Shown one piece after another: positions 23,271 to 28,716 of a DNA stretch of 64,000 nucleotides (the first letter of the stretch is position 1; every line of letters starts with the position of its first letter). Under the pieces are notes generated by a model. It saw only the letters and a list, made by a program, of their open reading frames with translations. It was not told where the DNA came from and did not search any database. A program made the translations under genes and the position numbers. Source of the stretch: Ignisphaera sp. (GTDB lineage: Archaea; Thermoproteota; Thermoprotei_A; Sulfolobales; Ignisphaeraceae); assembly GCA_038889075.1 (NCBI GenBank), contig JAWAHS010000005.1, positions 14,018 to 78,017 of the forward strand, written 5' to 3'.

Positions 23271-24032
23271 CTATAGCTTCTCTATTCTTTTTCCATAGAC
23301 AAATCTAATACCATATCTTCTGCATTCTTCTTCAAGGAATGCCGCAATGTCCTCAGATACATTCTCCACCGCCAGCAAAGCCATAAAAACTTTTCTATTG
23401 AACATAGACTCTACAAACTTTATATCCTCTAGAACTTTGTTGAGCTCTTCTCTAGCATTTTCAATACCACCTATGTATGTTGTCACTTCTCCTACAACTA
23501 GGGGATCTCTATTGAATATATCCACTTCCCTCTCGATATCTTTAAATGATAGAACTACATCAACTCTAACATCAATTTTGTCCTCGGGTACGCCACTAGA
23601 TTTAAGGAGTTCTTCAACAAATACAGCTGTATAGTGATCGAGGGTGGTGCCAACAGCTTTAGCAAGAGAACCCATGCCTTTTTCTAATCTATCAATACGT
23701 TTCTCTAAACTGGTTAAATGCTTATCAAATACCCCGAAATCCTTTTTCAAAGCCTTAACCTCCTCCCAAAGCCTATTCTGATTCTCCCACAGCTTCACCA
23801 CATCCTCCCTCAAAGCCTTAACCTCCTCCCAAAGCCTATTCTGATTCTCCCACAGCTTCACCACATCCTCCCTCAAAGCCTTAACCTCCTCCCAAAGCCT
23901 ATTCTGATTCTCAGACAATTTTTCAAGATTCTTTAACAGATCTGAGATCCCTAAATAGCCTACTACAGCGTACCTAAATTCCTCATCCTCCTCCAATAGC
24001 TTTAGGAATTCCTTCTTTAATCTGGTAGACAT
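23271..24032 (-). CDS. coiled-coil repeat protein with degenerate PD-(D/E)XK domain
   Basis: N-terminal 'LKLLEEDEEFRYAV', 21-aa repeats, 'REVDIF...VVGEVTT'. Confidence 0.75.
   Translation of the reverse strand: MSTRLKKEFLKLLEEDEEFRYAVVGYLGISDLLKNLEKLSENQNRLWEEVKALREDVVKLWENQNRLWEEVKALREDVVKLWENQNRLWEEVKALKKDFGVFDKHLTSLEKRIDRLEKGMGSLAKAVGTTLDHYTAVFVEELLKSSGVPEDKIDVRVDVVLSFKDIEREVDIFNRDPLVVGEVTTYIGGIENAREELNKVLEDIKFVESMFNRKVFMALLAVENVSEDIAAFLEEECRRYGIRFVYGKRIEKL
23747..23912. repeat. perfect 63-bp tandem repeat, about 2.6 copies
   Basis: tcaaagccttaacctcctcccaaagcctattctgattctcccacagcttcaccacatcctccc repeated; encodes ENQNRLWEEVKALREDVVKLW. Confidence 0.92.
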
Positions 24033-24258
24033 ACTTTACACATTCACCATATATGTCTACCGGGTTTATAAGGTGAACCACATAAACAATTCCATAATCT
24101 TGCTAGGTACATGTAGGGTAGTGCTGTAATGCTATTTACAAAGGTTATGAAATCTGATGTACAGGAGTTTATAGTAAACAATCGCAGGATTAGTCCAAGA
24201 CTGAAGTGAGCTATACAATGATATTCAACTACTTTCCAACAATTAGAGGCACTATCAT

Positions 24259-25596
24259 CTATGGTAGAAATGGAGGATCGACAGATTCCACTAACTGGGG
24301 TTTGGGTTTCATGTTGGTTGATGTTGTTTGATCTCGACCCTTGGTTTCATTGTCCTCGGGGCACCTTTTCATCGGTGCCCATGTCATCGGTCTCCACCCG
24401 TTCAGGGTAACCCCTACCCACAGCTCCCCCTCATCTAGCTCGAGTTCACAGCTGTGGGGAAACCCCCACATCTTGATGTACTTGAGGTAGATGTTTATGG
24501 ATGCGAGCTTCTGCCTATCCAGTTCGAGACCGCACCTCGGACACTTGAACACCCTGCCCACTCGGGTCTTCACCACACACCCGCATCGTGGGCAGGTTCG
24601 AGAGGTGTTGTGCGGAGAAACCTTAACCACTAGTGCTTTCTCCGAGAGTTTTCTGTGTATTGTTTCCCATGGTGTTCTAGCGTTTCTCTTTCTCCTCTCT
24701 TTATTAGTTCTCTCCCTGGCAACCATGTCCTCTTTCTCGAGGTTTTCGACGACGTGAATAGCGTTGGGGAGTAAGGTGGTTATCTGATTAACGAGCTTGT
24801 TTATGAAGTCCTTCTCCCTGTTCCTCTCTCGTTTAGCGTACTTCTCGAACAGCTCTTTCTTACCAATGGATTGAGCAGTAGCTTTCTTCTTCTCGTAGAC
24901 GGTCTTCAAGCTCTGAAGGTACCTCAAGTCAACCTTGATGAACCCCACACCTGGGGAGTAGCCGTCGATGGATAGCTCGTTCGAATCCCACGCAACAACT
25001 CTCTCAACACTGTAGACCTCGGTCTTCTTGAACGGAATAAGCACTCTATCGTCCTTGAGGATCACTTCACCAACCATACAGCCCTCTACCCTTCTGCTGA
25101 ACCACTTCCCACTCCAGGAAACCTCTAGGTACTCACCCGACTTCAGAGTTATCCTCACCGCTTTCCTCTCGTAGTCGATCTTCATGAGCGTTATCTTACA
25201 TCTTGCGAACCTTCTCTTAATCCTCGGCTTAACCCTCCTAGCTTCTCCACTCAGGTACCTCTTCCTCCAGGACGCGATAATAGAGTACACTGTTCTGATG
25301 ACAGCATCAATCCAATGATTAGCATAAGAACACTCGGTGAGCAAGGTGTTTCTAAGCATCTTCTTGAACTTCCTGTCAACAGGTATCCTTGGGACCTTAA
25401 CCTTGCACCCTACTTTAACACTAATCACTCCTCTTCTTCTGGATAGTTGCGGGAATCTGTACCCCCATGCGATGTTCTCCCATACTATGTCAACTACTTT
25501 CTGAAGCATCTTAGTGTACCATGTTACCAGCTCTTCTACTCTCTCATCTCTTATTGGAATGCTGTACATCCTCACTACTTCACGGGTCTTCAACAA
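24259..25596 (-). CDS. tnpB: TnpB RNA-guided endonuclease of the outer IS607 (alternative start ATG at 25569)
   Basis: RuvC-I 'VAWDSN', RuvC-II 'VVENL', zinc finger CPRCG..CPRCG, RuvC-III 'LDRQKLASINI'. Confidence 0.9.
   Translation of the reverse strand: MLKTREVVRMYSIPIRDERVEELVTWYTKMLQKVVDIVWENIAWGYRFPQLSRRRGVISVKVGCKVKVPRIPVDRKFKKMLRNTLLTECSYANHWIDAVIRTVYSIIASWRKRYLSGEARRVKPRIKRRFARCKITLMKIDYERKAVRITLKSGEYLEVSWSGKWFSRRVEGCMVGEVILKDDRVLIPFKKTEVYSVERVVAWDSNELSIDGYSPGVGFIKVDLRYLQSLKTVYEKKKATAQSIGKKELFEKYAKRERNREKDFINKLVNQITTLLPNAIHVVENLEKEDMVARERTNKERRKRNARTPWETIHRKLSEKALVVKVSPHNTSRTCPRCGCVVKTRVGRVFKCPRCGLELDRQKLASINIYLKYIKMWGFPHSCELELDEGELWVGVTLNGWRPMTWAPMKRCPEDNETKGRDQTTSTNMKPKPQLVESVDPPFLP
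24299..24475 (-). ncRNA. omega RNA scaffold of the outer TnpB (canonical position, overlapping the tnpB 3' end)
   Basis: GC-rich hairpins on the minus strand (tggggg-ttt-ccccaca; gggcacc-gatgaaaa-ggtgccc) running to the element end. Confidence 0.65.
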
Positions 25597-25782
25597 GTTT
25601 TCTCACACCTTCAACCACTTTCTCGTACTTATGACTCCTCATACCGTAGAGCTTTCCAGCGAAGTGAGATATGATGGTGATCAAATCCTCCACGAGCTCC
25701 TCCTTTGGGTCTTTATCCTCGTGGTTTAACACAACCACCTCTACTCCAAATGCTCTAAGGAGTTCTACCAGCGTTTTGAACC
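25580..25782 (-). pseudogene. tnpA: IS607 tnpA, C-terminal fragment
   Basis: Translates FKTLVELLRAFGVEVVVLNHEDKDPKEELVEDLITIISHFAGKLYGMRSHKYEKVVEGVRKLVEDP*; not in the ORF track. Confidence 0.92.
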
Positions 25783-25887
25783 GTTTCCCGCTCTAGGTCT
25801 TTGTAGGCTCTCCTAGGGCGGGTCATCACGGTTTCCCTGAGCCCCCTCCCCACGGTCTGCCATGGGTCTCGGAAACCCAGGGTCACC
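25783..25887 (-). ncRNA. candidate omega RNA transcribed divergently from the nested tnpB
   Basis: GC-rich with several stems (CCCTG/CAGGG, TGGGT/ACCCA, CCCGC/GCGGG, CTAGG/CCTAG); TGATGA box-C-like motif; ends at the element boundary. Confidence 0.6.
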
Positions 25888-25910
25888 AAAACCTTTTTAA
25901 GCACCTAGGG

Positions 25911-25919
25911 GTTTATAAG
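25911..25919. promoter_or_regulatory. candidate bidirectional TATA box (gtttataag)
   Basis: TTTATAA begins 27 nt before the ATG at 25939 (+); TTATAAA begins 31 nt before 25887 (-). Confidence 0.5.
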
Positions 25920-25938
25920 TCTTACGGGTTATACCCCT

Positions 25939-27069
25939 ATGGATTTAGATTACGTAACGATTAGTCTACCTTTCCATGCTACTGGAGATGTGGCGAAGAG
26001 CATTTACTGGACTGCGTGGCTGAGCAAAACGTGTGCTCACAGAGTGCTTGAGCGTGTCAAGGCGAATCCTCTGCTGGCTAAGCTGAGTGAGTACGACTTC
26101 ATCAAGTTCACGAGAGAGCTGTGCTACAGCTTGCTACCGAACAGAAGGTACGTTGACGGAGTAGCAACACTCGTGTACTCGAGTCTTCAGAGTGCTAGGA
26201 AGCTGGGAGTTGATGTATCAAGAGTAGAGCTCAAGCCTTGGCTCTTGTTCCAGAGCGAGGGAGAACCATGGGCTAGAGGAAACCTGAACATACAGTTCAC
26301 GGACTGCAAGACGGTCAGAGTACTGGTTTTCAAAGCAAGCGGTGGAAGCACAAGAGTAGTCGTTAAACCGGTTGTCCCTAAGGGGTACAGTAGACTCGTC
26401 GAAGAGCTCGTTAATAGAGCCATGAGAAAAGAGGTTGGTTACCCAGCCAGACTGTACATCAGGAGCTGTAGTGGAGACCTGGAGCACCTCTACGGCGAGC
26501 TACAGGTCAACGTTAAGTACAGCCTCTACCTGGAGGTCATGAGGAGATTTGATAAACCATTGGGAAACAACGTTGCAGGTGTAGACGTTAACACAGATAG
26601 ATTGAACCTGGTGGTGGTGAACAAGAATGGTGAAATCGTGTGGACACATACAGCCAGGTTTCCTCAAGTGCTGACCAGAGGCTTCCCAAAGAGAAGAGCC
26701 TGGAGCATTGTTGGAGAGAAGATACACGAGGTTCTAAAGCACGCTTACTACCACGGTGCTTCAGCTGTTGCTCTCGAAAACCCAGACGTGATCGGCTACC
26801 TCAGGTACTACTGGGTTAGAAACGGTGAAAGAGGAAGCAGAAACTACAACTACAAGGTAGCCGTGTTCAGAAGCTCGATCATTGAGAGAATAGCGTGGAA
26901 AGCACCGCTCTACGGGTTGAAAACGGTGTACGTAGACCCCAGGGGAACAACCAGTTCACGAGAACACGCGGAAACAATGAAGAAACTGAGACTCGATAAA
27001 CACCCCGCTAGTGCATACCTAATCGCGACAAGAGCTCTAGGCATCCTAGAGAGACCTACAAAAACCTAG
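25939..27069 (+). CDS. tnpB: zinc-finger-less TnpB-like RuvC nuclease
   Basis: RuvC-I 'VAGVDVN', RuvC-II 'VALENP', 'VDPRGTTSS' then RuvC-III 'LDKHPASAYLIA' with no CxxC pairs between them. Confidence 0.82.
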   Translation: MDLDYVTISLPFHATGDVAKSIYWTAWLSKTCAHRVLERVKANPLLAKLSEYDFIKFTRELCYSLLPNRRYVDGVATLVYSSLQSARKLGVDVSRVELKPWLLFQSEGEPWARGNLNIQFTDCKTVRVLVFKASGGSTRVVVKPVVPKGYSRLVEELVNRAMRKEVGYPARLYIRSCSGDLEHLYGELQVNVKYSLYLEVMRRFDKPLGNNVAGVDVNTDRLNLVVVNKNGEIVWTHTARFPQVLTRGFPKRRAWSIVGEKIHEVLKHAYYHGASAVALENPDVIGYLRYYWVRNGERGSRNYNYKVAVFRSSIIERIAWKAPLYGLKTVYVDPRGTTSSREHAETMKKLRLDKHPASAYLIATRALGILERPTKT

Positions 27070-27091
27070 CACACAAAAACAGTTGCCAACC

Positions 27092-27491
27092 CGAACCTGG
27101 TGAGTCTATCTGGGTACGCTACTACGATCTTGGATATCTTCTTCTCGGTTGCAAGTCTCAGTATTCTCTTGAATCCTTTTCTATCCTCGTTGAGACCACT
27201 ACCGATGTCCGTGACGACCTCGTACTTCTCTATGTTGTTCTGCTTAGCCCACTCCTCGAGAACCCTCACCTGTCTCTCGAGATCGTCCCTCTGCGTATGA
27301 GAGGAGGTACGAGCGTAGAGGATAACGGTCTTCGGTTTAACGATACCCATCAGCTTCTCAACGTCTTCCTCTCTGAACCTCCACTTACCACTCTCGAGAA
27401 CAACTGGTTTAATCCAACCTCTCCTAACGTACTCTCTCAGAGTAGTGTAGCTGATACCAAGCTTCTCACAAACCTCCTTTGGTCGAAGCAT
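27092..27491 (-). pseudogene. tnpA: IS607 tnpA, N-terminal fragment (HTH + serine recombinase)
   Basis: GGAGGTG RBS; 'LRPKEVCEKLGISYTTLREY' HTH; 'YARTSS', 'DIGSGLN', 'DRLTRFG'. Confidence 0.93.
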
Positions 27492-27696
27492 TAACACCTC
27501 CAATAATAAAATGATATCAACCCTTGTAAACCTATATGAAACCCGAAACAGTTGCGTGAGGCTGGATATATCTAAGGGATCGATGATAGTATCTTCAAAG
27601 ACCTTGTTACGGAATTCATCCAAGGGTATTGTTAACCACCAAACTCCTGGGTTAGGGTATTTCCATCTAAAATTTGCAAAGATTCTGCACATTCAA

Positions 27697-28716
27697 TTAT
27701 TGAGATGCTATGGGATTGCTCCAAGCTTTACCTCCTTGGAAATCCATAACCTCTACCCGCAGGTATCTACCCCATTTAAATCTATCTACAGTAAGCAGGT
27801 CTATTCCATTACTATCCATAACCGCACTAATCCGGGTTTGGTTCTTGGTAAATACAACTATTGTTCGATTACCCTCTCTAACAATATCGATTTCATCAAC
27901 AACACTCTTGATTTTCTCGACATCACCTATGTTGTTTATTAACCAATCAACATCATCCGAACCTATTGAAAAGCCCTTTCCATTTTCAGAAATCAGTGTT
28001 ATTCTCCTAGCGCTGCATGTAGCTACCTCAATATAGTTACCATCTACCATGAGCTTCTTTATTACAGCTCCTGTACTGGAATAGAATCCGCCACTTCTTA
28101 TAGCTTTAAATACCTCATCTGTATTTAGCTCCCTAAGCAGTAGCACAGTCCATCCACCATCGGCATCAATTGGTGGAAATACATATCTATGTGAATCATC
28201 AACAGCTACTCCCCATACCCTGTAACCAGATGATAATAATGAATCCCAGGATGAAAGGGCGAATCCCTTAGATACCTCTACTTCACAACCATAGTTAAAG
28301 ATCTCCATAGCCGCATAACCTTGAATGGATATCAGATCCTGGTACACCAAGCCACTCCAGTGAGGATGGGCCAAGATAGCTATACCGCCACTTCTATTAA
28401 CGAAATCCATAAGCTCCTGTAGATCACCGATTCTCGCGATACTGTCATCCCCTACCCCTAGTACAACAAGGTGGTAGGGCTCCTCCAATGCACTACGACC
28501 CTTAGAGATTTCCATACCTTGAATAACTAGTGGGTCATCAAAATCTTTCACCTCAATGCGTGTAATTTTATTATGATCTGTTAAAGCTACAACACCGTAT
28601 CCGTGGTTTTTATAGAAGTCAACTACATCCTTTGGTGCAAGTTTACCATCAGAGCTTGTCGAGTGTGTATGTAGAGCTGCTTTAACATGTAGATCCCTAT
28701 CACTAATATGGAGCAC
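27697..28716 (-). CDS. PHP-domain metallohydrolase (CehA/McbA-like)
   Basis: 'LHTHSTSSDG', 'TDHN', 'AHPHW', 'DDSH'. Confidence 0.85.
   Translation of the reverse strand: MLHISDRDLHVKAALHTHSTSSDGKLAPKDVVDFYKNHGYGVVALTDHNKITRIEVKDFDDPLVIQGMEISKGRSALEEPYHLVVLGVGDDSIARIGDLQELMDFVNRSGGIAILAHPHWSGLVYQDLISIQGYAAMEIFNYGCEVEVSKGFALSSWDSLLSSGYRVWGVAVDDSHRYVFPPIDADGGWTVLLLRELNTDEVFKAIRSGGFYSSTGAVIKKLMVDGNYIEVATCSARRITLISENGKGFSIGSDDVDWLINNIGDVEKIKSVVDEIDIVREGNRTIVVFTKNQTRISAVMDSNGIDLLTVDRFKWGRYLRVEVMDFQGGKAWSNPIASQ

Follow-up and report, generated by a model that had tools for sequence, protein, structure and literature searches.

We analysed a 64,000-nucleotide stretch of the genome of Ignisphaera sp. 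(GenBank assembly GCA_038889075.1, contig JAWAHS010000005.1, positions 14,018 to 78,017), hereafter called the window, in which an IS607-family insertion sequence is interrupted by a second, smaller mobile element lying within its transposase gene, tnpA. The nested element encodes on the plus strand a compact protein with the predicted fold of TnpB and Cas12 nucleases and, on the opposite strand, a candidate guide RNA whose 3' end would coincide with the element boundary. The genes and elements of the locus are as follows, in window positions.

24297..27563, minus strand: host element of the IS607 family (tnpA-tnpB), about 1958 bp long once the insert is subtracted, with ends taken from short copies and metagenome contigs.
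27092..27491, minus strand: 5' part of host tnpA (amino acids 1-133), encoding a MerR-type helix-turn-helix (HTH) and the first half of the resolvase catalytic domain, by Pfam.
25580..25782, minus strand: 3' part of host tnpA (amino acids 134-200), in frame with the 5' part after removal of 1309 bp.
24259..25596, minus strand: host tnpB of the zinc-ribbon type, a 445-amino-acid open frame (Pfam Cas12f1-like_TNB, E 7.8e-15).
25783..27091, no strand assigned: nested non-autonomous element of 1309 bp, of which 1307 bp are the element proper and 2 bp a single copy of the core.
25939..27069, plus strand: 376-amino-acid protein of TnpB/Cas12f fold without a zinc finger, from homologues, AlphaFold and a fold search.

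The host tnpA starts on the minus strand at 27491, breaks off at 27092, resumes at 25782 and stops at 25580. Its 133-residue N-terminal part matches positions 1-77 of the 145-position Pfam Resolvase profile (E 9.9e-18), with HTH_17 and MerR matches at amino acids 1-50 (HTH_17 E 8e-12), and its C-terminal part matches positions 84-135 of the same profile (E 3e-4). Therefore, one Resolvase domain has been split in two. IS607 serine transposases have a MerR-type HTH at the N-terminus and a resolvase catalytic domain after it, the arrangement seen here, and tnpB lies downstream of tnpA on the same strand, as in the IS607 family; the tnpB product matched NCBIfam guided_TnpB at E 5.6e-20, under the curated cut-off (72 vs. 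100 bits). The limits of the host element were read from MITE-like (miniature inverted-repeat transposable element) genome copies of about 300 bp, which begin at 24296/24297 and finish at about 27562-27564, and from hot-spring metagenome contigs, in which unrelated sequence takes over at 24297 and at 27562/27563. An imperfect inverted repeat is formed by 24301-24335 and 27513-27547. The element ends at about amino acid 433 of the 445-residue tnpB frame, which overruns position 24297 by 38 nt (about 12 codons) and finds its stop codon in the flanking DNA.

An initial annotation of this DNA had claimed that deletion of 25783-27091 restores an IS607 tnpA and that GGTT is present at both junctions, and both claims held. 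When 25580-25782 and 27092-27491 are joined on the minus strand, the two parts form one continuous frame of 603 nt without stops, which encodes 200 amino acids and reads DRLTRFG-FKTLVELL over the joint. Because AACC (GGTT on the minus strand) is present at both junctions, the boundary is ambiguous by 4 bp, and shifts of -4 to 0 give an identical product. The rejoined protein aligns end to end with an intact 200-residue TnpA homologue from a genome of the same genus (locus L050). Intact relatives of the host element, such as those at L048 and L050, occur in same-genus genomes at 72-77% nucleotide identity, one of them with an ATG-started TnpA of 200 residues. Metagenome contigs from four hot-spring DNA runs (four studies) were also aligned to positions 23800-28000 at 90% likeness. 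Contigs of three of the four runs (X1, X2 and X6, from three studies) join 25778 to 27088, skipping 1309 letters with four ambiguous ones, and those of the fourth run (X7) skip 1310 with one extra letter; loose contig ends lie at 25779-25781 and at 27092. The joints that skip 1309 letters fix the element boundaries independently. An uninterrupted tnpA allele, the same or a very similar one, exists in hot-spring communities, and the observation of an insert nested in an IS607 tnpA is confirmed.

No serine transposase gene was found within the nested element, whose 1309 bp hold one long open reading frame (ORF) only; the element is therefore non-autonomous, if it is of IS607 type at all. Sequence models gave weak, partial matches to the 376-residue protein (Pfam TNB, E 0.021, profile positions 4-30 of 60; NCBIfam guided_TnpB, E 0.006), both falling near the C-terminus. 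It nevertheless has 491 homologues at E<=0.001, all with the label PF27229, a precomputed annotation that our own Pfam search did not return and on which we found nothing in the literature. Among their named sources are Zestosphaera (88% identity), Desulfurococcales, Staphylothermus, Thermococcus (with Thermococcus sp. M39), Pyrococcus (with Pyrococcus kukulkanii) and Vulcanisaeta (with Vulcanisaeta moutnovskia; annotated 'IS605 OrfB'), and 46 of 151 sampled genomes of the order contain a match; four of the relatives' loci compared below were obtained through a locus search with the single protein and the rest through the search of the 151 genomes. The AlphaFold model (pLDDT 87.6, pTM 0.80) found its best counterpart among PDB folds in Cas12f1 (7c7l_A, E 2.4e-9, TM 0.55), followed by other Cas12f, Cas12k and Cas12g structures (E 2.4e-9 to 1e-4). 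As modelled, the protein is of the WED-REC-RuvC fold that characterises the TnpB/Cas12 superfamily. Among 33 aligned homologues E280 (in ALENP) and H355 are invariant, and D216 (in GVDVN) and D353 are conserved in at least 90%. At the place of RuvC-III, where the motif was matched by eye, the family reads L-D353-(R/K)-H355-x-A-S-A (here LDKH..SAY) against the canonical TnpB DRDxNAA. No CxxC pairs of a C4 zinc finger were found between RuvC-II and RuvC-III in the 33-sequence alignment.

Both departures from the canonical protein have a described counterpart. Altae-Tran et al. 2023 (PMC10691335) describe a TnpB clade, RIIIr-4, without the C4 zinc finger and with the RuvC-III Asp changed to His; the rearranged clades are found partly in archaea, and their activity is presumed since the change is conserved. 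The 376-residue protein fits RIIIr-4 in both features by description, as distinct from placement on a tree. However, the RIIIr-4 members linked to RHH/MazE genes (RHH, ribbon-helix-helix) are non-mobile and have a long 3' untranslated region (PMC10691335), unlike the nested element. Another copy of the nuclease gene, 91-96% identical, lies in a related metagenome-assembled genome (L015:1700-4651) and is split after about amino acid 168 by an IS200/IS605 element of about 1.8 kb, which carries a 142-residue Y1 TnpA and a 475-residue zinc-finger TnpB.

The second component of the nested element lies upstream of the nuclease gene. The features that concern it and the two junctions are the following.

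25783..25890, minus strand: candidate guide-RNA scaffold of about 108 nt, from folds and covariation in 22 relatives, with an inferred 5' end.
25761..25780, minus strand: flank that would serve as guide on RNA read-through (TTCAAAACGCTGGTAGAACT...), part of the tnpA coding sequence, assigned by position only.
25781..25782, minus strand: core dinucleotide GG (CC on the plus strand) at the RNA-side junction, which reads GGGAAAC, then GG, then TTCAAAACG.
25894..25918, no strand assigned: two conserved TATA-like boxes, TTTTTAAG at 25894-25901 and TTTATAA at 25912-25918, between RNA and gene.
27090..27093, minus strand: CGGG, the core GG (27091-27090) preceded by the flank CG, a candidate transposon-adjacent motif (TAM) and integration motif.
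27055..27069, no strand assigned: subterminal repeat CCTACAAAAACCTAG, an inverted copy (93% complementary) of 25793-25807 in the loop of the RNA terminal hairpin.

The initial annotation had postulated a divergent RNA, and the candidate RNA is now backed by covariation and by strand-specific U·G pairs. The roughly 108 bp between the left end of the element and the TATA box of the gene are conserved far more than its other parts. The RNA region can be aligned in 22 relatives, at protein identities down to 41%, and shows compensatory variation; the sets exclude L019, where the upstream region is truncated, and L014, where another RNA module interrupts it and the extracted stretch cuts it short. 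Independent minimum free energy folds of the minus strand gave the same architecture in all 22 relatives. A short helix (GGU/ACC) closes the structure; it is followed by a stem of 12 bp that includes U·G pairs (CCCUGGGUUUCC with GGGGGCUCAGGG in the window), by an inner hairpin whose length varies and by a single-stranded, conserved ACCGUGAUGA linker. A terminal hairpin (11 bp in the window and 10-13 bp across relatives) comes next, and a tail, G(A/U)GAAAC in relatives and GGGAAAC here, ends exactly at the element boundary. The minus strand folds more stably than the plus strand in 21 of the 22 (mean dG -62.2 vs. -50.5 kcal/mol; mean z -5.2 vs. -3.2), and RNAalifold gave -13.2 kcal/mol for the minus and -5.7 for the plus strand. 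In our alignment A4, standard pairs make up 86.0% of cells, a value reached by none of 500 shuffles (71.9% after shuffling), and 21 of the 33 pairs have changes on both sides; controls in which the partners were slid by 1-3 columns paired at 44-51%. The terminal hairpin is misaligned in five close relatives in A4, the window included, so that its 74.8% paired cells are an underestimate. Three adjacent columns are conserved U·G pairs and would be A·C if read on the plus strand. The strand-specific U·G pairs, the covariation and the stability of the minus strand indicate that the functional molecule is most likely an RNA whose transcription would run away from the nuclease gene and whose 3' end would fall at the element boundary. 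From the palindromic TTTATAA box the distance is about 24 nt to the nuclease ATG (25939) and about 25 nt to the UUGGUGAC conserved at the 5' side of the RNA, and the TATA region may be used as a promoter in both directions. Just before the nuclease ATG, at 25925-25938, there is a short conserved palindrome, with the sequence GGGTTATACCCC in the window; relatives have GGGGATTCCCC or GGGTATATCCC at this place. It may act as an operator or form a hairpin at the 5' end. Rfam returned no family at E<=1 for positions 24000-28000, apart from a chance microRNA match outside the element, and comparison of the RNA with the 3' RNA region of the host tnpB revealed no meaningful similarity.

In a canonical TnpB system the guide RNA is encoded on the strand of the gene, at its 3' end or overlapping it, and PMC10691335 places it downstream of tnpB and upstream only for IscB. 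A conventional arrangement, in which a plus-strand guide RNA overlaps the 3' end of the nuclease gene and takes the right flank (CGAACCTGGTGAG...) as its guide, would agree with this standard layout, and the weak Pfam and NCBIfam TnpB matches do fall near the C-terminus. However, no consensus structure was detected at the gene's 3' end and downstream of it in 22 loci on either strand (alifold 0.0 and -0.27). Moreover, the stop codon is followed by just 22 bp, and short copies of the element, described below, keep no more than 35-70 bp or so of that end. We consider this arrangement very improbable. At this locus the structured RNA is instead upstream of the gene and on the opposite strand. An upstream guide RNA recalls IscB and IsrB (PMC10691335), but in those systems the RNA is encoded on the same strand, the guide is at the RNA 5' end and the protein architecture is another one, whereas here the protein is Cas12f/TnpB-like and the guide would be 3'.

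The junctions follow a simple rule. Read in the RNA orientation, each element ends in AAC, which is followed by the core dinucleotide and then by unrelated flank, and at the far end that dinucleotide stands again, immediately ahead of the bases with which the element begins. All 22 relatives have matching cores at their two junctions, GG/GG in 20 and GC/GC in two (L034 and L028, the latter junction read by eye), with no target duplication beyond the core, in agreement with the earlier proposal that the junction repeat is an IS607-type core. The base before the core is G and is mostly preceded by A or T, which makes the motif WGGG in relatives; it is CGGG in the window. This analysis of ends leaves aside the fragmentary loci L025 and L040-L046, and the left-end (LE) pattern was unmatched in L039 and mis-set in L028, L035 and L036. 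A preprint on the IS607 IStron (10.1101/2023.11.20.567912) describes a strictly GG core, identifies TGGG as both the target and the TnpB TAM, finds that donor joints are scarless, and adds that an altered core can be carried over. The rule seen here matches both the mechanics of an IS607 serine transposase and the reported TGGG TAM. Further, the far end of the element (GGTTGGCAACTGTTT...) is similar to the transposase-proximal end of the host IS607 element (CCTCACGCAACTGTTT...), CTGT being common to the ends of the family. The subterminal repeats are likely transposase-binding sites; end-to-end repeat matches of a similar kind are also seen in the relatives' alignments.

The nested element thus resembles IS607 elements with TnpB, such as the Clostridium botulinum IStron (10.1101/2023.11.20.567912), in having a GG core at both junctions without further target duplication, a target and TAM ending in GGG, and a scarless donor joint, so that the empty site is matched by the guide. 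In both cases there are also small non-autonomous derivatives. Unlike the IStron, however, the nested element has neither a tnpA nor an intron, its nuclease lacks the zinc finger and has an apparent RuvC-III His, its candidate RNA is encoded opposite to the nuclease and at the other end of the element from the gene's 3' side, and its host is a hyperthermophilic archaeon.

A serine transposase would have to be supplied to such an element in trans. Searching the loci of 33 relatives by tblastn, we found no TnpA-like match next to the nuclease gene in 32. Across the 151-genome sample, a resolvase match is present in 36 of 46 nuclease-positive genomes and in 42 of 105 nuclease-negative ones (odds ratio 5.4). 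The Ignisphaera assembly, which is 99.6% complete and may leave repeats unassembled, has two resolvase matches, of which the split tnpA is the only full-length gene and the other an 87-residue fragment.

The left end of the nested element recurs at seven other places in the genome at 83-88% identity, and an eighth match, on contig C4, covers its first 45 bp or so only. The right-end piece can be detected by BLAST at two of the seven, and by alignment four short copies of about 214-226 bp keep both ends. These copies retain the whole RNA end but only about 35-70 bp of the other end, and the four that were located carry the motifs ACGGG, TAGGG and CCAGGG (twice, with the same flank). In the metagenome contigs, the deletion joints of short copies start at 25886-25890, which is the putative 5' end of the RNA, and the depth over the RNA end is about 6-70 times that of the gene body. 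The short copies have the appearance of RNA-only satellites, dependent on the one nuclease gene. For the empty sites of these copies in same-genus genomes, the flanking genes were found but the intergenic DNA was too diverged to read. Two of the copies (C2:108-325 and C8:67187-67404 of this genome) have an identical right flank but different left flanks, both at contig ends, and probably represent an assembly break at a repeat.

RNA-only satellites of the PATE type are dependents of IS200/IS605 elements, with a tyrosine (Y1) transposase and single-strand hairpin ends. The short copies of the nested element are like them in keeping the ends and the guide-RNA module, and in that they would need both nuclease and transposase in trans; they differ in following the core rule of a serine transposase.

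Taken together, we read the insert as a non-autonomous element of the IS607 world, with a compact TnpB-family nuclease gene on the plus strand and a divergent structured RNA of about 108 nt on the minus strand, that persists by homing and came to lie in tnpA by accident. We give this reading a probability of roughly 0.6. A serine transposase supplied in trans would integrate the circular element at TTCG-GG-TTCAAAACG in tnpA, the GG core lying within the CGGG site. The RNA, read out past the boundary, would acquire the flank UUCAAAACGCUGGUAG... as its guide, and the ribonucleoprotein would cut the uninterrupted site (CGGG followed by the guide sequence) after excision or on an empty allele. Repair from an element-carrying copy would then restore or spread the element. 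The short copies would use the single nuclease gene in trans, and a side effect of the insertion would be the breakage of the only full-length resolvase gene found in the assembly. Trans-mobilisation, nuclease activity and homing are inferred. This logic of retention and homing is standard for TnpB elements and would hold wherever the element sits.

It is also conceivable, though unlikely, that the minus-strand RNA is real but is not a guide, acting instead as an antisense or regulatory RNA or as a scaffold for transposition, with a protein that does not pair with a target or that is a regulator. In favour of this, the third RuvC residue appears to be altered; relatives of TnpB have been domesticated as regulators; and the loop of the terminal hairpin overlaps the repeat found at the other end, so that part of its conservation may serve DNA binding. 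However, the 3' end of the RNA falls at the boundary in 22 of 22 relatives, and the order of conserved tail, core and unrelated flank is the geometry of a TnpB guide RNA. Unlike domesticated regulators, moreover, these elements are mobile, with MITE copies and different flanks, and the protein retains D216 and E280.

A TnpB-type guide is whichever flank adjoins the element, and any such element would by default have a guide that targets its own empty site. Given read-through, it is plausible that the guide would be the flank TTCAAAACGCTGGTAG... with CGGG as the TAM-side motif, matching what had been deduced earlier from the same DNA. The initial annotation went further and proposed a hyperparasite, or a brake on IS607, aimed at intact tnpA, which would make insertion there recurrent and selected. 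We find this improbable. It is true that the would-be guide sits in tnpA coding sequence, that the uninterrupted allele occurs in the same type of habitat and that the one full-length resolvase gene detected in the assembly was broken by the insertion. By rough arithmetic, moreover, about eight copies in 1.95 Mb would land in a 603-bp gene with a chance of about 0.25% under uniform insertion, and at L044 a nuclease gene fragment lies beside a tnpA-like remnant with a MerR-type HTH. However, a guide directed at the element's own empty site is general to TnpB-type elements and so is uninformative as to aim. None of the seven other left-end places coincides with either resolvase match; the copies lie at unrelated sites, and the located flanks share only NGGG/GG. 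A TnpA-like piece was found by tblastn in one of the 33 relatives' loci, a degenerate one with no recognisable element end. The intact relatives of the host element differ at several positions of the 16-nt target. Nesting is itself common, as in L015, where the nuclease gene is split by an IS200/IS605 element, and in L014, which has a second RNA module by its ATG. The insertion-site comparison that had been proposed yielded a shared NGGG/GG motif but no recurrence inside tnpA, and the proposed search for intact tnpA copies succeeded in same-genus genomes and metagenomes but turned up no other full-length resolvase gene in this assembly. The landing in tnpA was most likely an accident in a tolerated target rather than an evolved aim, and loss of the helper transposase is a de facto effect under either reading. 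We also considered L044:1304-2042 as a second case of an element within tnpA but did not count it, given its degenerate state; it comprises a 48-residue remnant with the HTH only, an in-frame stop and a nuclease fragment (amino acids 184-367), with no element end.

Several points weigh against an accidentally placed, homing IS607-type element. Ten of the 46 nuclease-positive genomes have no resolvase match, and the co-occurrence of the two genes is confounded by shared ancestry and by the general load of insertion sequences, related genomes not being independent. No intact serine transposase able to mobilise the element was found in this assembly. A priori, uniform landing would rarely hit a 603-bp gene in a genome of 1.95 Mb, which somewhat favours a target preference; this argument is weakened by ascertainment and by selection that removes insertions from needed genes. 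The metagenome joints have short sides (26-39 letters) and were accepted at 90% likeness, so their source may be close relatives of the insertion sequence and not this strain. Among 22 runs, none of RNA was listed as containing the stretch, a result that carries no information on expression. We infer transcription of the RNA, its ends and its read-through into the flank, and the nuclease gene points away from the RNA, unlike in all TnpB layouts that we found described. Finally, the third RuvC residue appears to be His and not Asp, judging from the alignment, which leaves nuclease activity uncertain.

Nested insertion, a GG core and a guide equal to the flank are already known biology, and nesting itself is ordinary; the divergent layout of nuclease and RNA may matter more. 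As far as we found, what seems new is a TnpB-fold nuclease whose candidate guide RNA is encoded on the other strand, at the end of the transposon that is distant from the 3' side of the gene. The literature searched contained no description of a divergent guide RNA for TnpB, the supplements of PMC10691335, which possibly cover it, not being included. A broader reading sees in these loci a hyperthermophile archaeal clade of zinc-finger-less TnpBs with divergent guide RNAs, a shared TATA region, IS607 mobilisation in trans and RNA-only satellites; at this locus the system would also have silenced its own helper, a kind of built-in brake. The clade would comprise at least 491 homologues and be present in 46 of 151 genomes of the order, and we hold this reading tentatively, at a little under even odds. 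If confirmed, the layout would show that transposons can separate a nuclease gene from its guide RNA and invert the one relative to the other, and it would explain the poor recognition of this family by sequence models. It would also provide a very compact candidate editor from hyperthermophiles, with a 376-residue, presumably thermostable protein and a candidate RNA of about 110 nt. The empty and filled alleles in hot-spring communities form a natural polymorphism, and retention and homing of serine-transposase elements are testable in archaea.

The remaining observations concern the neighbourhood of these elements. The second RNA module in L014 (3056-3316) belongs to another subfamily and is inserted in inverted orientation between the TATA box and the ATG, which makes it another nest. 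The host IS607 element has its own short copies of about 300 bp, at least 6-7 in this genome and further ones in the genus, in which about 125 bp are retained from the guide-RNA end, on the 3' side of tnpB, and about 48 bp from the end next to tnpA, corresponding to 24297-24420 and 27516-27563 of the window; examples are C1:356579-356874, C12:42307-42608, C4:33724-34026, C17:1774-2077 and C2:97256-97559. Beside the host element, an ORF of 253 amino acids on the minus strand (23271-24032) contains three tandem units of about 21 residues (LWENQNRLWEEVKALREDVVK) and looks like a coiled-coil repeat protein.

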